This document shows, in pieces, positions 5,579 to 21,282 of a stretch of 64,000 bases of DNA (within the stretch, counting starts at the first letter, position 1; every line of letters starts with the position of its first letter). The notes beneath the pieces were generated by a model. The model saw only the letters and a program-made list of their open reading frames with translations, was not told the DNA's origin and did not search any database. The stretch lies in assembly GCF_000026545.1 (NCBI RefSeq), contig NC_011601.1. One strand, 5' to 3'. The position numbers were made by a program, and so were the translations under genes. Source of the stretch: Escherichia coli O127:H6 str. E2348/69. GTDB lineage: Bacteria > Pseudomonadota > Gammaproteobacteria > Enterobacterales > Enterobacteriaceae.

Positions 5579-6355
5579 TTAACGTTGTTCGTAGCGTTTA
5601 AACACCAGTTCGCCATTGCTGGAGGAAGCTTCATCAAAGAAGTAACCTTCGCTATTAAAACCAGTCAGTTGCTCTGGTTTGGTCAGCCGATTTTCAATAA
5701 TGAAACGACTCATCAGACCGCGTGCTTTCTTAGCGTAGAAGCTGATTATCTTAAATTTGCCGTTCTTCTCATCGAGGAACACTGGCTTGATAATCTCGGC
5801 ATTCAATTTCTTCGGCTTCACCGATTTAAAATACTCATCTGACGCCAGATTTATCACTACATTATCGCCTTGTGCTGCGAGCGCCTCGTTCAGCTTGTTG
5901 GTGATGATATCTCCCCAGAATTGATACAGATCTTTCCCTCGGGCATTCTCAAGACGTATCCCCATTTCCAGACGATAAGGCTGCATTAAATCGAGCGGGC
6001 GCAGTACGCCATACAAGCCGGAAAGCATTCGCAAATGCTGTTGGGCAAAATCGAAATCGTCTTCGCTGAAGGTTTCGGCCTGCAAGCCAGTGTAGACATC
6101 ACCTTTAAACGCCAGAATTGCCTGGCGGGCATTCTCCGGTGTGAAATCTGGCTGCCAGTCATGAAAGCGAGCGGCATTGATACCCGCCAGTTTGTCGCTG
6201 ATGCGCATCAGGGAGCTAATCTGCGGGGGCGTCAGTTTCCGCGCTTCATGGATCAGCTGCTGGGCGTTGTCTAACAGCTCCGGCAGCGTATAGCGCGTGG
6301 TGGTCAACGGGCTTTGGTAATCAAGCGTTTTCGCAGGTGAAATAAGAATCAGCAT
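5579..6355 (-). CDS. yaaA: peroxide stress protein YaaA (UPF0246)
   Basis: 258-aa [19 protein letters not shown]. Confidence 0.9.
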
Positions 6356-6424
6356 ATCCAGTCCTTGCAGGAAATTTATGCCGACTTTAGCAAAAAAAGA
6401 GAATGAGTTGATCGATAGTTGTGA

Positions 6425-7855
6425 TTACTCCTGCGAAACATCATCCCACGCGTCTGGAGAAAGCTGGCGACCGATCTCCGGATAACGCAACGGATCAAAC
6501 ACCGGGCGCACGCCGAGTTTACGCTGGCGTAGATAATCACTGGCAATGGTATGAACCACAGGCGAGAGCAATAATATGGCGGTCAAATTGGTAATAGCCA
6601 TGCAGGCCATAATGATATCTGCCAGTTGCCACATCAGCGGAAAACTTAGCAAGGTGCCGCCGATGACCGTTGCGAAGGTGCAGATCCGCAGACACCAGAT
6701 CGCTTTAGGGTTGTTCAGGCGTAAAAAGAAGAGATTGTTTTCGGCATAAATGTAGTTGGCAACGATGGAGCTGAAGGCAAACAGAATAACCACGAGGGTA
6801 ACAAACTCCGCACCCCAGGAACCCATTAGCACCCGCATCGCCTTCTGGATAAGCTGAATACCTTCCAGCGGCATGTAGGTTGTGCCGTTACCCGCCAGTA
6901 ATATCAGCATGGCGCTTGCCGTGCAGATGACCAGGGTGTCGATAAAAATGCCAATCATCTGGACAATTCCTTGCGCTGCCGGATGCGGAGGCCAGGACGC
7001 AGCTGCCGCTGCCGCGTTTGGCGTCGACCCCATTCCCGCCTCATTGGAAAACATACTGCGCTGAAAACCGTTAGTAATCGCCTGGCTTAAGGTATATCCC
7101 GCCGCGCCGCCTGCAGCTTCCTGCCAGCCAAAAGCACTCTCAAAAATAGACCAAATGACGTGGGGAAGTTGCCCGATATTCATTACGCAAATTACCAGGC
7201 TGGTCAGTACCCAGATTATCGCCATCAACGGGACAAACCCCTGCATGAGCCGGGCGACGCCATGAAGACCGCGAGTGATTGCCAGCAGAGCAAAGACAGC
7301 GAGAATAATTCCTGTCACCAGCGGAGGAAAATCAAAAGAAAAACTCAGGGCGCGGGCAACGGCGTTCGCCTGAACTCCGCTGAAAATTATGCCGTAGGCG
7401 ATGAGCAAAAATAGGGCGAACAGAACGCCCATCCAGCGCATCCCCAGCCCGCGCGCCATATACCATGCCGGTCCGCCACGAAACTGCCCATTAACGTCAC
7501 GTTCTTTATAAAGTTGTGCAAGGGAACATTCGGCAAACGAGGTCGCCATGCCGATAAACGCGGCAACCCACATCCAGAAGACGGCACCTGGTCCACCGGC
7601 GGTAATAGCCAGCGCAACGCCAGCCAGGTTGCCGCTACCCACGCGCGCCGCAAGACTGGTACACAATGACTGAAATGAGGTTAAACCGCCTGGCTGTGGA
7701 TGAATGCTATTTTTAAGACTTTTGCCAAACTGGCGGATGTAGCGAAACTGCACAAATCCGGTGCGAAAAGTGAACCAACAACCTGCGCCGAAGAGCAGGT
7801 AAATCATTACCGATCCCCAAAGGACGCTGTTAATAAAGGAGAAAAAATCTGGCAT
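6425..7855 (-). CDS. yaaJ: alanine/glycine:cation symporter (AGCS family)
   Basis: 476-aa polytopic membrane ORF. Confidence 0.9.
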   Translation of the reverse strand: MPDFFSFINSVLWGSVMIYLLFGAGCWFTFRTGFVQFRYIRQFGKSLKNSIHPQPGGLTSFQSLCTSLAARVGSGNLAGVALAITAGGPGAVFWMWVAAFIGMATSFAECSLAQLYKERDVNGQFRGGPAWYMARGLGMRWMGVLFALFLLIAYGIIFSGVQANAVARALSFSFDFPPLVTGIILAVFALLAITRGLHGVARLMQGFVPLMAIIWVLTSLVICVMNIGQLPHVIWSIFESAFGWQEAAGGAAGYTLSQAITNGFQRSMFSNEAGMGSTPNAAAAAASWPPHPAAQGIVQMIGIFIDTLVICTASAMLILLAGNGTTYMPLEGIQLIQKAMRVLMGSWGAEFVTLVVILFAFSSIVANYIYAENNLFFLRLNNPKAIWCLRICTFATVIGGTLLSFPLMWQLADIIMACMAITNLTAILLLSPVVHTIASDYLRQRKLGVRPVFDPLRYPEIGRQLSPDAWDDVSQE

Positions 7856-16851: not shown

Positions 16852-17004
16852 TTACTCGGATTCGTAAGCCGTGAAAACAGCAACCTCCGTCTGGCCAATT
16901 CGGATGTGAACCTCACAGAGGTCTTTTCTCGTTACCAGCGCCGCCACTACGGCGGTGATACAGATGACGATCAGGGCGACAATCATCGCCTTATGCTGCT
17001 TCAT
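16852..17004 (-). CDS. hokC: Hok-family type I toxin
   Basis: 50-aa ORF MKQHKAMIVALIVICITAVVAALVTRKDLCEVHIRIGQTEVAVFTAYESE. Confidence 0.85.
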   Translation of the reverse strand: MKQHKAMIVALIVICITAVVAALVTRKDLCEVHIRIGQTEVAVFTAYESE

Positions 17005-17061
17005 TGCTCTCTTCTCCTTGACCTTTCGGTCAGTAAGAGGCACTCTACATGTGTTCTGCAT
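16852..17061 (-). CDS. mokC: mokC, overlapping reading frame that enables hokC translation
   Basis: in-frame upstream Met (MQNTCRVPLTDRKVKEKRA...) extends hokC to 69 aa, as in hok/mok loci. Confidence 0.65.
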   Translation of the reverse strand: MQNTCRVPLTDRKVKEKRAMKQHKAMIVALIVICITAVVAALVTRKDLCEVHIRIGQTEVAVFTAYESE

Positions 17062-17107
17062 ATAGGGGGCCTCGGGTTGATGGTAAAATATCACTCGGGG
17101 CTTTTCT
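17053..17107 (+). ncRNA. sokC: sokC antisense RNA (approximate placement)
   Basis: placed by position relative to the mokC start, by analogy with hok/sok loci; boundaries not verified from sequence. Confidence 0.3.
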
Positions 17108-17618
17108 CTATCTGCCGTTCAGCCAATGCCTGAGACAGACAGCCTCAAGCACCCGCTGCTATTATACTGCGCTTTTAATTCACTTCTGTTTTATCAATTC
17201 TTTTTCTGAAGACGCCTCGCATTTTTGCGGAATAATATTTCAATACATCAATTTATTTAACTTAAATATATCCAGGGATTCACAAAAAAAGGTGTTTTCC
17301 TCTATCAAAAGTGAATGGCTAAAGGAAATTAATTATTAAAGGTTACTGTAATACTATAGAGAGATAAAGAAATACGTTCAGCAGCCAATGCTAAGTTCAT
17401 CATGAAAAATGCCTATAAATCAAAGGGTGATGTTTAAAACAGACACATTTTCTGAAACACGATATCCCTCCGCCCGTTCGCAAAAGTAATCTGCGATCTT
17501 CATCACGCTTCGATAGTCATCTTTAAATATACTGGCCTGGTCATTCTTAATAAAAATGAATTGTCTGGTGTATTAATTCCTATGGAATCATAAAAACAAT
17601 GAATGGAGAACATATTAT

Positions 17619-18380
17619 ATGTCTGCCAAAAGACGACTTCTTATTGCGTGTACCCTGATAACAGCTATCTATCATTTTCCTGCATATTCTTCATTAGAAT
17701 ATAAAGGAACCTTTGGTTCAATAAATGCGGGTTATGCAGACTGGAATAGTGGATTTGTAAACACTCACCGTGGTGAAGTATGGAAAGTGACTGCGGATTT
17801 TGGGGTAAATTTTAAAGAAGCAGAATTTTACTCATTTTATGAAAGTAATGTACTCAATCATGCTGTAGCAGGGAGAAATCATACGGTTTCAGCAATGACG
17901 CATGTCAGACTCTTTGACTCTGATATGACATTCTTTGGCAAAATTTATGGCCAATGGGATAACTCATGGGGTGACGATCTGGACATGTTTTATGGATTCG
18001 GTTACCTCGGCTGGAACGGCGAGTGGGGCTTTTTTAAACCGTATATTGGATTGCATAATCAATCTGGTGACTACGTATCAGCTAAATATGGTCAAACGAA
18101 TGGTTGGAATGGTTATGTTGTTGGCTGGACAGCAGTATTACCATTTACGTTATTTGACGAAAAATTTGTTTTATCTAACTGGAATGAAATAGAACTGGAC
18201 AGGAACGATGCTTACACGGAGCAGCAATTTGGCCGGAACGGGTTAAATGGCGGTTTAACTATTGCCTGGAAGTTCTATCCTCGCTGGAAAGCCAGTGTGA
18301 CGTGGCGTTATTTCGATAATAAGCTGGGCTACGATGGCTTTGGCGATCAAATGATTTATATGCTTGGTTATGATTTCTAA
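17619..18380 (+). CDS. small outer-membrane beta-barrel channel, Tsx/OmpK-like (KdgM-like is an alternative)
   Basis: 253-aa ORF with N-terminal signal-like region, Trp/Tyr/Gly-rich alternating segments (WNGEWGFF, GWNGYVVGW) and C-terminal ...MLGYDF ending in Phe; low-GC gene preceded by ggagaa RBS. Confidence 0.65.
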   Translation: MSAKRRLLIACTLITAIYHFPAYSSLEYKGTFGSINAGYADWNSGFVNTHRGEVWKVTADFGVNFKEAEFYSFYESNVLNHAVAGRNHTVSAMTHVRLFDSDMTFFGKIYGQWDNSWGDDLDMFYGFGYLGWNGEWGFFKPYIGLHNQSGDYVSAKYGQTNGWNGYVVGWTAVLPFTLFDEKFVLSNWNEIELDRNDAYTEQQFGRNGLNGGLTIAWKFYPRWKASVTWRYFDNKLGYDGFGDQMIYMLGYDF

Positions 18381-18400: not shown

Positions 18401-19894
18401 ATGCAGAAAACGTTAATGGCCAGTTTGATCGGCCTTACAGTTTGCACAGGGAATGCTTTTAGTCCTGCCTTAGCCGCAGAGGCTAAACAACCTAATTTAG
18501 TCATTATTATGGCGGATGATTTAGGTTATGGCGATTTAGCAACATATGGTCATCAGATCGTTAAAACACCTAATATCGACAGGCTTGCCCAGGAAGGGGT
18601 CAAATTTACTGACTACTATGCCCCCGCTCCTTTAAGTTCACCTTCACGCGCAGGGCTATTAACCGGCCGGATGCCATTTCGTACTGGAATTCGCTCATGG
18701 ATTCCTTCAGGCAAAGATGTTGCCTTAGGGCGTAACGAACTCACGATTGCTAATCTACTCAAAGCGCAAGGGTACGACACGGCAATGATGGGTAAGCTGC
18801 ATCTGAATGCAGGCGGCGATCGCACCGATCAGCCACAAGCACAAGATATGGGCTTTGATTACTCACTGGTTAATACGGCGGGCTTTGTTACCGACGCCAC
18901 GCTGGATAACGCTAAAGAACGCCCGCGTTATGGCATGGTTTACCCGACAGGCTGGCTACGTAACGGGCAACCCACTCCACGAGCCGATAAAATGAGCGGT
19001 GAGTATGTCAGTTCGGAAGTCGTCAACTGGCTGGATAACAAAAAGGACAGCAAGCCTTTCTTCCTCTATGTTGCTTTTACCGAAGTGCATAGCCCCCTGG
19101 CTTCGCCCAAAAAATACCTCGATATGTACTCACAATATATGAGCGCGTATCAGAAGCAGCATCCTGATTTATTTTATGGCGACTGGGCAGACAAACCCTG
19201 GCGTGGTGTGGGGGAATATTATGCCAATATCAGCTATCTGGATGCACAGGTTGGAAAAGTGCTGGATAAAATCAAAGCGATGGGTGAAGAAGATAACACC
19301 ATCGTTATTTTTACCAGTGATAACGGTCCGGTAACGCGTGAAGCGCGCAAAGTGTATGAGCTGAATTTGGCAGGGGAAACGGATGGATTACGCGGTCGCA
19401 AGGATAACCTTTGGGAAGGCGGAATTCGTGTTCCAGCCATTATTAAATATGGTAAACATCTACCACAGGGAATGGTTTCAGATACACCCGTTTATGGTCT
19501 GGACTGGATGCCTACTTTAGCGAAAATGATGAACTTCAAATTACCTACAGACCGTACTTTCGATGGTGAATCGCTGGTTCCTGTTCTTGAGCAAAAAGCA
19601 TTGAAACGCGAAAAGCCATTAATTTTCGGGATTGATATGCCATTCCAGGATGATCCAACCGATGAATGGGCGATCCGTGATGGTGACTGGAAGATGATTA
19701 TCGATCGCAATAATAAACCGAAATATCTCTACAATCTGAAATCTGATCGTTATGAAACACTTAATCTGATCGGTAAAAAACCAGATATTGAAAAACAGAT
19801 GTATGGTAAGTTTTTAAAATATAAAACTGATATTGATAATGATTCTCTAATGAAAGCCAGAGGTGATAAACCAGAAGCGGTGACCTGGGGCTAA
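18401..19894 (+). CDS. periplasmic sulfatase, Ser-type
   Basis: 497-aa ORF; signal peptide ending ALAAEA; sulfatase signature PLSSPSRAGLLTG with Ser at the formylglycine position; conserved N-terminal IIMADDLGYGD metal-binding region. Confidence 0.85.
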   Translation: MQKTLMASLIGLTVCTGNAFSPALAAEAKQPNLVIIMADDLGYGDLATYGHQIVKTPNIDRLAQEGVKFTDYYAPAPLSSPSRAGLLTGRMPFRTGIRSWIPSGKDVALGRNELTIANLLKAQGYDTAMMGKLHLNAGGDRTDQPQAQDMGFDYSLVNTAGFVTDATLDNAKERPRYGMVYPTGWLRNGQPTPRADKMSGEYVSSEVVNWLDNKKDSKPFFLYVAFTEVHSPLASPKKYLDMYSQYMSAYQKQHPDLFYGDWADKPWRGVGEYYANISYLDAQVGKVLDKIKAMGEEDNTIVIFTSDNGPVTREARKVYELNLAGETDGLRGRKDNLWEGGIRVPAIIKYGKHLPQGMVSDTPVYGLDWMPTLAKMMNFKLPTDRTFDGESLVPVLEQKALKREKPLIFGIDMPFQDDPTDEWAIRDGDWKMIIDRNNKPKYLYNLKSDRYETLNLIGKKPDIEKQMYGKFLKYKTDIDNDSLMKARGDKPEAVTWG

Positions 19895-19942
19895 CCTGAT
19901 AATCATAATAAATGTAATGTATGCCATTTAGGGCTATGCCCG

Positions 19943-19979
19943 CCTGATTCAGTGCTACGCATTGAATCAGGTTCTTTTC
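19943..19979 (+). terminator. putative rho-independent terminator after the sulfatase gene
   Basis: 9-bp stem cctgattca / tgaatcagg with 11-nt loop, followed by ttcttttcg. Confidence 0.45.
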
Positions 19980-20016
19980 GCGTTGAACAATATCAAGATA
20001 CGGCTATTCGCAGGGA

Positions 20017-21282
20017 GTGGATATGTTTACCAACGTAAATGTTGATTGTTGCAAAACACCAGGATGTAAAAACCTGGGGTTGCTGAATAGCCAGGATTAT
20101 GTCGCACAGGGTAAAAATATTTTATGCCGTGAATGTGGTTACTTGTTTCCAGTGATATCTGAACAGTCGCTTAATATTTATCGTAATATTGTGAATCACT
20201 CCTGGAGAGGTTTGATTTGCCAATGTTCAACTTGCGGAGGCACGTCCCTCAAAAAATATGGATATTCTGCACAAGGCCAGAGAAGAATGTATTGCCATCA
20301 TTGTGAGAAAACATTTATCACTCTGGAACATGTAATTACCACACCACGAGGAGCCCAGTTAGCATTGATGATTGAGCAAGGGGAGGCACTTGCGGATATC
20401 AGAAAGTCATTACTTCTTAACAGCACTGGACTTAGCCGTGAACTGTTAAAATTAGCGCGTGAAGCAAACTATAAAGAAAGTCGACAGTGTTTCCCAGCTT
20501 CTGATATTACCCTGAGTACCCGCGCTTTTCGCGTCAAGTATAATGGTAGCAATAACTCTCTTTATGCTCTTGTTACCGCAGAAGAACAAAGCGGCAGGGT
20601 GGTTGCCATCTCAACCAATTACTCCTCATCTGCCGTAGAGCAACATTATCAATACACATCGAACTATGAAGAGCGTATGTCTCCAGGGACGCTGGCACAT
20701 CATGTCCAGCGCAAAGAGTTACTTACTATGCGGCGGGATACCTTGTTTGATATTGATTACGGCCCGGCAGTTTTACATCAAAACGATCCGGGAATGTTGG
20801 TAAAACCGGTTCTTCCGGCATATCGCCATTTTGAACTGGTCAGAATACTGACCGATGAGCATTCCAACAACGTTCAGCATTACCTTGATCACGAATGCTT
20901 TATATTGGGCGGCTGCCTGATGGCTAATTTGCAGCATATTCATCAAGGTCGCTGCCATATTTCCTTTGTCAAAGAGCGCGGTGTGGCACCCGCCACCATT
21001 GATTTTCCACCGCGATTATTCCTTAGTGGTGGGGTACGAAATAATGTCTGGCGTGCATTTTCTAACCGCAATTATTCAATGGCTGTATGCAATCTCACTG
21101 GCAGTAAGAAAGTCCGCGAGATGCGGCATGCAACATTGAACAGTGCGACGCGTTTTATCCACTTTGTGGAGAACCATCCTTTCCTTATATCATTGAACCG
21201 AATGTCTCCTGCGAATGTCGTTTCTACATTAGATATCCTCAAACATCTGTGGAATAAAAAACTAGAGCATGGAACAATTTAA
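20017..21282 (+). CDS. cysteine-rich hypothetical protein with N-terminal zinc-ribbon-like region
   Basis: 421-aa ORF; first ~100 aa carry CCx4C, CxxC, CxCxxC and YCHHCEKTF motifs resembling transposase/InsA-type zinc ribbons, followed by a possible HTH; no CxxxCxxC radical-SAM motif; AGGGAG RBS favours the ATG at 20023 over the GTG at 20017. Confidence 0.6.
   Translation: MDMFTNVNVDCCKTPGCKNLGLLNSQDYVAQGKNILCRECGYLFPVISEQSLNIYRNIVNHSWRGLICQCSTCGGTSLKKYGYSAQGQRRMYCHHCEKTFITLEHVITTPRGAQLALMIEQGEALADIRKSLLLNSTGLSRELLKLAREANYKESRQCFPASDITLSTRAFRVKYNGSNNSLYALVTAEEQSGRVVAISTNYSSSAVEQHYQYTSNYEERMSPGTLAHHVQRKELLTMRRDTLFDIDYGPAVLHQNDPGMLVKPVLPAYRHFELVRILTDEHSNNVQHYLDHECFILGGCLMANLQHIHQGRCHISFVKERGVAPATIDFPPRLFLSGGVRNNVWRAFSNRNYSMAVCNLTGSKKVREMRHATLNSATRFIHFVENHPFLISLNRMSPANVVSTLDILKHLWNKKLEHGTI

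Follow-up and report, generated by a model that had tools for sequence, protein, structure and literature searches.

A transposase-derived protein of an Escherichia coli sulfatase island as a candidate partner of CRP

Gene X and its predicted domains

The subject of this work is gene X, which lies in a 64-kb stretch at the chromosome start of Escherichia coli O127:H6 str. E2348/69 (NC_011601.1; the window, meaning the whole of the analysed DNA) and codes for a transposase-derived protein that may regulate transcription together with the sugar-starvation regulator CRP. The gene belongs to an accessory island within the dnaJ/mokC-sokC to nhaA interval. E. coli K-12 is without the island, and IS186 and hokC occupy the same position there. 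The order of the island is OmpK/Tsx-family channel, sulfatase, gene X. The first gene of this module (17619-18380, plus strand) encodes a Tsx/OmpK-family outer-membrane channel (RefSeq: 'outer membrane protein OmpK'; Channel_Tsx, PF03502, in the orthologues), and the second (18401-19894, plus strand) a periplasmic sulfatase (RefSeq; PF00884 in the orthologues). Gene X itself is found at 20023-21282 on the plus strand, both as an open reading frame (ORF) and as a RefSeq coding sequence. Its product of 419 amino acids, WP_000494929.1, is labelled 'hypothetical protein' in RefSeq.

An earlier note on this DNA, drawn up from the sequence alone, had placed the ORF at 20017-21282 (421 amino acids). 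The frame is indeed unbroken on the plus strand, but a later start codon is to be preferred. A GGGAG Shine-Dalgarno sequence is located 5 nt upstream of ATG 20023 and is overlapped by GTG 20017, and the N-terminus reads MF in all homologues of X. The ATG is therefore the likelier start, and the residue numbers used here follow the 419-residue form.

The N-terminal part of X resembles the DNA-binding part of IS1 InsA. Eight cysteines (C10, C15, C35, C38, C68, C71, C91 and C94) are invariant or at least 90% conserved, also when relatives of 20-30% identity are included (alignments A1 and A2), and by this pattern they are predicted to form two four-Cys zinc ribbons. Zinc ribbon 1 (residues ~8-44 with C10, C15, C35 and C38; 20044-20154, plus strand) is recognised from the conservation of its cysteines and from short beta-strands in an AlphaFold2 (AF2) model. 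IS1 InsA has no counterpart of this ribbon, which is specific to the family. Zinc ribbon 2 (residues ~64-99 with C68, C71, C91 and C94; 20212-20319, plus strand) is of the InsA/IS1595 type: the NCBIfam model NF050000 (IS1_IS1595_Zn; cut-off 28 bits) matches at 28.1 bits, and Pfam Zn_ribbon_InsA (PF03811) matches seven of 30 family members at E<=1e-3. A helix-turn-helix (HTH) module follows at residues ~106-153 (20338-20481, plus strand), with AF2 helices at 108-119, 123-130 and 134-153. When the X-family profile was compared to IS1 InsAB' by hhalign, residues 64-145 aligned with InsA 4-88, spanning both ribbon and HTH, with a probability of 96.6% (E 7e-10). X thus shows the succession of InsA-type ribbon and HTH that is typical of the IS1 family. 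The earlier note had described four Cys clusters, the last of them similar to the IS1 InsA/IS1595 ribbon, and a helix-rich segment that could be an HTH, and all three observations are borne out. The Pfam/HMM comparison that it had proposed was less generous for X itself, where Pfam finds zero domains at E<=0.001; the InsA ribbon is seen in the relatives, and NF050000 just reaches its cut-off. The PHROG models gave a weak match to the ribbon only. A sequence search of the PDB returned C2H2 zinc fingers, which were rejected as spurious matches tied to the Cys-rich N-terminus, and nothing else.

For the C-terminal part, no Pfam, NCBIfam or PHROG model spans residues 150-419. The AF2 model, which was built from 24 homologues (pTM 0.80, mean pLDDT 72.7), shows an RNase H-like domain (DDE-transposase fold) with an insertion and a C-terminal helical bundle at residues ~159-419 (20497-21279, plus strand). 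The order of elements is b1 (161-172), b2 (179-187), b3 (193-198), a helix (224-237), b4 (258-260), a second helix (263-278) and b5 (283-289), after which further elements and the helical bundle follow. This is the b1-b2-b3-a1-b4-a2-b5 topology of DDE transposases and retroviral integrases, and because of this order a catalytic-type domain is predicted to exist in X at the fold level. The statement of the earlier note that there is no recognisable catalytic domain consequently holds for the sequence (Pfam; hhalign to InsB), but not for the fold, which became visible in the structure prediction suggested there. In addition, the DDE triad and radical-SAM motif that the note could not recognise are indeed missing. 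A conserved D,D,E triad was not found across 30 diverse family members, and X gave no match to radical-SAM (PF04055), SPASM (PF13186) or the formylglycine-generating enzyme (FGE), so that the signatures of sulfatase-maturing enzymes are lacking.

The relation to IS1 ends where the N-terminal module ends. The InsB DDE domain (PF03400) was not detected by Pfam in X or its family, and hhalign of the C-terminal profile against IS1 InsB gave a probability of 0.3% and no sequence link, the IS1 homologues being too alike to be of use. With X, the IS1 family model NF033558 (cut-off 100 bits) reaches 20.5 bits over residues 70-144 only; the name 'IS1 family transposase' that some members bear can thus be traced to the N-terminus alone. 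The catalytic domains of Tn5 (IS4 family) and ISCth4 (IS256/Mutator family) share 7-10% sequence identity with X, and neither the DDE triad nor the YREK-type motif is conserved in the X family. The parent of X may have been IS1-, IS1595- or IS1249/IS256-like.

Residues of X can be assigned to the old active-site positions by the topology of the AF2 model. Strand 1 bears a conserved Thr/Ser at T166, while D161 at the start of this strand is kept in close relatives and not family-wide. Strand 4 leads to K261 and the invariant P262. Column 291 (E or D, beside the conserved H290) is the sole always-acidic column among the 30 members. The residues that are conserved family-wide are T166, N199, Y211, R238, Y246, P262, H269, F270, H290, E291, W339, W343 and N411.

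Immobility and gene neighbourhoods of the X family

Of 5426 complete E. coli genomes, 1280 have X, each in exactly one copy that is located on the chromosome and never on a plasmid. Its dnaJ-nhaA site is common to Escherichia, Klebsiella, Salmonella and Citrobacter. Terminal inverted repeats flanking X were searched for and none were found. One inverted repeat, I1 (19831-19849 and 20636-20654), was judged a chance match, because one of its arms lies within the sulfatase gene and the other within X. X therefore shows none of the marks of a mobile element (inverted repeats, multiple or variable copies, carriage on plasmids). Two alleles are known in E. coli, forming groups of at least 99% and about 81% identity, and both have the ompK-sulfatase-X arrangement. 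Between them, the nonsynonymous (dN) and synonymous (dS) divergence is 0.093 and 0.91, respectively. The resulting dN/dS of 0.10 indicates purifying selection on X; the neighbouring genes have values of 0.02-0.045, so X evolves faster than they do. A single, chromosomal and syntenic copy without inverted repeats and with such a ratio marks X as a host gene and not as an insertion sequence, and the protein is very probably a domesticated, non-mobile derivative of a transposase.

The divergence of the two alleles (20023-21282 compared to 6001-7245 of locus L027) is itself unusual, with a dS of 0.91 at 81% DNA identity next to flanking genes with a dS of 0.32-0.53. This excess suggests old allelic lineages or recombination limited to X. 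Several AFDB50 orthologues from host-restricted Salmonella serovars are short, namely Q8Z9N7 from S. Typhi (327 amino acids), C0Q4H7 from S. Paratyphi C (247 amino acids) and the S. arizonae protein (258 amino acids). Judged from their lengths alone, they appear to be truncated or decaying.

The family of X is small, with 97 representatives at E<=1e-3 among the 1.84 billion searched. A profile search of 5.8 billion proteins with the alignment of the distant subfamily (see below) gave at least nine matches, and a search for related loci with alignment A5 gave seven loci. The members that were named or fetched belong to Enterobacterales, Vibrionales, Gilliamella and Celerinatantimonas, under labels as varied as 'IS1 family transposase', 'cytoplasmic protein' and 'lactate dehydrogenase'. 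The last of these is found in several records from Photobacterium and is evidently a propagated mis-annotation.

Members with at least 33% identity to X are here called the close subfamily, and those with 20-30% identity and the same architecture the distant subfamily. Every close-subfamily locus examined holds a Tsx-like channel, a sulfatase and X, usually together with an anaerobic sulfatase-maturing enzyme (anSME, radical SAM/SPASM). This module is present at no fewer than four unrelated sites: dnaJ-nhaA, an Atlantibacter site, a Scandinavium site beside cdd and a matP-proximal site. In Klebsiella, Salmonella, Citrobacter, Atlantibacter and Scandinavium, X follows the anSME gene on the same strand after a gap of 11-27 nt.

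The neighbours of the distant subfamily point to nucleosides. All 12 loci with usable context adjoin deo, add, PNP, nupC/nupG or 5'-nucleotidase genes, mostly in divergent orientation. Some distant members are divergent from tal-add-deoCABD, from nupC-PNP, from deoB-deoD-nupG-add (including Gilliamella) or from tal-add-deoA-deoB in Celerinatantimonas. Other distant members adjoin PNP, or a UshA-like 5'-nucleotidase (Proteus, Serratia, Providencia and an E. coli paralogue). A single gene divergent from a catabolic operon is the classic place of a dedicated regulator. The sulfatase, moreover, is missing from most distant loci, which argues against a sulfatase-maturation role of the X family.

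A composite promoter element with a CRP-like site

In the intergenic regions next to distant-subfamily genes, a motif of ~19 nt was found by inspection, ACTATCAttTTgTGTTGGT. Leave-one-out scans with position weight matrices (PWMs) were used to rank such motifs, and they covered whole loci of 11-19 kb and, for E. coli, 20 kb of the window. On both strands of the complete distant loci (11-17 kb), the X-flanking intergenic region came out on top in seven of eight cases and second in the eighth. A separate comparison of seven close-subfamily promoters yielded two conserved blocks, a CRP-like TG.GAT-N6-ATCAC and AAAACAACAyWTTyTGACAC. In the leave-one-out scans, the latter block was the best match of the entire locus in Klebsiella, Salmonella, Scandinavium and Atlantibacter (four of seven close loci), came second in both E. 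coli alleles and third in Citrobacter. The two versions, when read towards the regulated gene, have the core AACAACA-N5-TGAYA in common, and the element is referred to as the X-box.

In the window, the candidate operator is GTTTCAGAAAATGTGTCTGT on the minus strand at 17439-17458 (plus strand: ACAGACACATTTTCTGAAAC), as located by the seven-promoter comparison, the PWM scan and the spacing to CRP. The CRP-like site TGCGATCTTCATCACG at 17492-17507 (plus strand) agrees with the consensus at eight of ten positions and is the best conserved 16-mer of the promoter comparison. The two are separated by 33 nt, or ~51 bp from centre to centre, which corresponds to five helical turns. A predicted -10 hexamer, TATACT (17528-17533, plus strand; read from the sequence), begins 20 nt after the CRP-like site and would serve the operon of tsx-like channel, sulfatase and X. 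If this is the -10 hexamer, the CRP-like site would be centred at -41.5 (class II) and the X-box at about -92.5. In synergistic 'class III' CRP promoters such as deoP2, a second activator is bound at about -92.5.

The spacing between X-box and CRP-like site is shared by both subfamilies. Among 20 promoters, 18 have their best CRP-like site (searched within 90 nt; 8-10 of 10 positions) at 32-35 nt past the TGAYA end of the element; the chance of such a spacing is about 1.5e-3 per promoter. The CRP-like site is always on the TGAYA side, towards the regulated gene. In Salmonella and Citrobacter, the divergent tsx and sulfatase promoters have one X-box each, in equal relative orientation and each with its own CRP-like site. 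In the divergent distant loci, the composite element faces the nucleoside operon. The X-box itself is, in most of these loci, 20-60 nt away from the start codon of X, and binding there could bring about autoregulation as well. X thus combines an HTH/zinc module with a site that, by comparison of loci, recurs in the promoters of its neighbours.

Two further candidates in the window were dropped. A third conserved block (ATAAATCAA..GT.A, 17415-17430) scored no better than shuffled controls, and a weaker X-box-like match at 17279 (plus strand) is not kept in the other E. coli allele.

The X-box also bears a resemblance to the ends of IS1. The half-sites CCAAC and TGAT, taken from the reverse strand of the distant consensus (ACCAACAcAAAaTGATAGT), are found in IS1 only at positions 11-23, in both terminal inverted repeats (CCAACTTACTGAT and CCAACTTATTGAT), whereas by chance IS1 should contain 0.04 matches of this kind. 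The half-sites are separated by N4 in the IS1 repeats versus N6 in the element. The element may therefore descend from a transposon end, as the shared half-sites suggest. IS1 ends also carry IHF-type sequences.

Two loci with an X-box deserve separate mention. The E. coli paralogue of X, a 'hypothetical protein' of 376 amino acids, is encoded in 1840-1877 of the 5426 complete genomes (about one third). Its gene (L026, L038, SCU-124) is located between metF and metL, divergent from a periplasmic 5'-nucleotidase, and the intergenic region reads ACCAAC..., then 34 nt, then a perfect CRP site. In Providencia rettgeri YPR31 (L021, 3528-12100), a sulfatase-like gene is divergent from X and is followed by a 5'-nucleotidase, TsgA, PNP and an anSME-like gene, with three composites of X-box and CRP site (5243, 6679 and 12078). 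This locus hints at sulfatase and nucleoside functions in one pathway, possibly for sulfated nucleosides or nucleotides.

Proposed role and competing explanations

Taken together, X is proposed to be a transcription regulator that would act at the X-box together with CRP, at a probability of roughly 0.6. The N-terminal module (family zinc ribbon, InsA-type ribbon and HTH) would recognise the ~19-bp AACAACA-N5-TGAYA operator, and X bound there would modulate the CRP-dependent transcription of the tsx-like channel/sulfatase/X operon. The RNase H-like domain would no longer cut DNA and may instead serve oligomerisation and/or the sensing of an effector. Relatives of X in other genera would control genes for nucleoside scavenging. 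As to the direction of control, we lean towards co-activation with CRP, plus autorepression in the divergent arrangements. The earlier note had named a domesticated transposase-derived regulator of the sulfatase genes as one candidate role. Comparative genomics favours this proposal, yet it was incomplete, since the link to nucleosides and nucleotides and the CRP-coupled element had not been seen.

The dosage of X would be set by a hairpin between the sulfatase gene and X. This structure (19942-19981, plus strand; terminator scan) has a 14-bp stem and a U-rich tail, with a folding energy of -27.1 kcal/mol (z -5.9). It is kept in Klebsiella and Salmonella, upstream of anSME, with both stem arms changed in Salmonella. 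Its appearance is that of an intrinsic terminator or attenuator, by which X would be kept low and the proportion of sulfatase to downstream products fixed. Immediately upstream of X in the window there is no X-box, and the hairpin is found there instead. X is therefore probably produced at a low level, by read-through from the CRP-dependent promoter past the hairpin. As X is part of the operon in this way, the operon would feed back on itself.

Several points weigh against this proposal. The distant motif was first noticed by eye, and for both E. coli alleles the X-box ranks second in the leave-one-out scan. The positions -41.5 and -92.5 depend on a predicted -10 hexamer. The PWM of the distant subfamily fails to pick out the E. 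coli, Klebsiella and Salmonella promoters, and the match across subfamilies is weak; the two motif versions are therefore linked by resemblance and shared CRP spacing and not by a statistical match, as expected if operator and protein have diverged together. A metagenome scan for the composite element gave seven matches, which equals random expectation, and one of them was true (Providencia-like, with an adjacent X gene). The association of X with the element is comparative, and another factor could bind the latter. The AF2 confidence is low at residues 215-245 and 321-349, and in the RNase H-like domain the conserved H269, H290 and E291 could make up a new site for catalysis or metal binding. 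Finally, X of the close subfamily is the last gene of its operon and not divergent from it, which also fits an accessory protein.

A maturation or accessory role was the other option of the earlier note; X might, for instance, serve the sulfatase as a chaperone or act as a partner of anSME. It would explain why X comes directly after anSME in the same orientation in five genera, with gaps of 11-27 nt, and why the protein is rich in cysteine. On the other hand, distant homologues of the same architecture reside by nucleoside genes without a sulfatase, and E. coli has deleted anSME and retained X under purifying selection. The protein is without a signal peptide while the sulfatase is periplasmic, it has no radical-SAM, FGE or chaperone signature, its N-terminus is a DNA-binding module, and the true anSME is a separate neighbour gene in the other genera. 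This role is accordingly disfavoured and improbable. An enzyme that uses H269/H290/E291, be it a nuclease, a nucleotide- or nucleoside-processing enzyme or a site-specific DNA-processing one with the element as substrate, is about equally hard to favour, if by a shade less. Its appeal is in the sole universal acidic position (column 291, E/D), which is flanked by a conserved His, in the invariant H269, in the RNase H fold as a nuclease fold, and in a gene context of nucleic-acid and nucleotide catabolism. However, the 5'-nucleotidase, Tsx channel and sulfatase encoded nearby work in the envelope, whereas X is cytoplasmic. A known nuclease motif was not detected in X, and both the divergent single-gene layout and the CRP composite at fixed helical phase are typical of transcription control.

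A regulator of this kind might also act elsewhere, with AACAACA-N5-TGAYA being bound by another protein such as a second global factor. The element is AT-rich and partly of IHF type (WATCAR...TTR), although with a different spacing, and we infer rather than observe that X is its binder. This explanation is unlikely too, as the element accompanies genes of the X family in operons that are unrelated and in different orders (Enterobacterales, Orbales and Vibrionales-like loci), and differs between the subfamilies in step with the divergence of the protein. The least credible option by far is that X is a transposase still at work in an insertion sequence that has escaped recognition, or else a copy that decayed recently and has no host function. 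It can appeal to the predicted transposase fold and to the NCBI name 'IS1 family transposase' of some members. Yet X is single-copy, found on chromosomes only and syntenic across genera, it lacks terminal repeats and a conserved triad, its similarity to IS1 is confined to the N-terminus (20.5 of 100 bits; InsB 0.3%), and its dN/dS of 0.10 has been maintained across 0.9 synonymous substitutions per site.

Going beyond the proposed regulator, a single mobile element may have given rise to the whole unit: a factor that partners CRP, an operator derived from a terminal inverted repeat (CCAAC...TGAT), and a dead active site turned into an inducer pocket, the inducer possibly being a nucleoside or a sulfated nucleoside or sugar. 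This scenario is speculative and on balance doubtful. If true, it would reveal an unrecognised regulator family in Enterobacterales and Vibrionales, in the role that CytR plays in E. coli K-12, and would connect nucleoside scavenging with the sulfatase islands that pathogenic E. coli, Salmonella and Klebsiella carry.

Related systems and further observations

CytR is the closest functional analogue. It controls tsx, deo, nupC/nupG and cdd-type genes at CRP-dependent promoters, in a fixed geometry with CRP, and a second CRP dimer is bound near -93 in deoP2. The regulon proposed for the X family is of the same kind, and the X-box is predicted to sit where this second dimer does. CytR, however, is a LacI-family protein with another operator, between or next to CRP dimers, and X is unrelated to it in fold and origin. 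IS1 provides the homologous DNA-binding part, as its InsA/InsAB' has the zinc ribbon (CxxC...CxxC) and HTH of X and its terminal repeats share the CCAAC...TGAT half-sites with the candidate operator. InsA is a DNA-binding negative regulator of IS1 transposase expression that binds the IS1 ends (PMC8944449). In contrast, X has an extra N-terminal zinc ribbon and a 260-residue C-terminal domain without a detectable sequence relation to the InsB DDE domain. It also lacks the frameshift architecture and inverted repeats, is single-copy and immobile, and its element has the N6 half-site spacer in place of N4.

The conversion of a transposase to a host transcription factor is a well-known eukaryotic theme. 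In SETMAR and FHY3/FAR1, the DNA-binding domain of the transposase was kept and catalysis lost or repurposed, although these proteins are eukaryotic and come from other transposon superfamilies. The binding sites, as in the case of SETMAR, come from transposon ends (inverted terminal repeats, ITRs; PMC8327481). For bacteria, a literature search returned no comparable domestication of a DDE transposase to a promoter-specific regulator, and nothing on IS1-derived transcription factors. What the analysis adds to the earlier note, for a family that is uncharacterised, is the transposase fold, the family-wide link to nucleosides, a concrete candidate operator and the fixed coupling to CRP.

X would offer a compact bacterial test case of one gene, one predicted 20-bp operator and one CRP site, carried by pathogens such as enteropathogenic E. 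coli (EPEC) E2348/69, uropathogenic E. coli (UPEC) CFT073, sequence type 131 (ST131), Salmonella and Klebsiella. It would also provide a first handle on an unstudied, widely conserved envelope module of Tsx-like channel, sulfatase, 5'-nucleotidase and arylsulfotransferases, which may be relevant when bacteria grow in the gut on sulfated compounds or nucleotides derived from the host. The database names of X-family members would be corrected as well.

The island is larger in Salmonella (L016, 1404-12091) and Citrobacter (L029). Besides the Tsx-like channel, sulfatase, anSME and X, it holds a periplasmic 5'-nucleotidase and two arylsulfotransferases (arylsulfate sulfotransferases). The Salmonella island probably corresponds to STM0032-STM0038. 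The literature search found no study of X or STM0037, and none of STM0037 or its neighbours as a regulator.

The sulfatase has changed in E. coli. Both E. coli alleles read SSPSR at the formylglycine site (residue 79), and CSPSR is found in all orthologues with an adjacent anSME (Klebsiella, Salmonella, Citrobacter, Atlantibacter, Scandinavium and L009). The anSME gene has been cleanly lost from the 19895-20022 interval in E. coli, and the hairpin upstream of it has been retained. The E. coli sulfatase is under strong constraint (dN/dS 0.03). Either the Ser-type sulfatase is matured by another anSME (AslB or YdeM), or the enzyme now works with the Ser itself, for instance on phosphate esters.

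Directly upstream of the island lies the mokC/hokC toxin gene with the sok antitoxin RNA (16852-17154; Rfam RF01794, 116 bits). The 80-residue minus-strand ORF listed at these positions is MokC/HokC.

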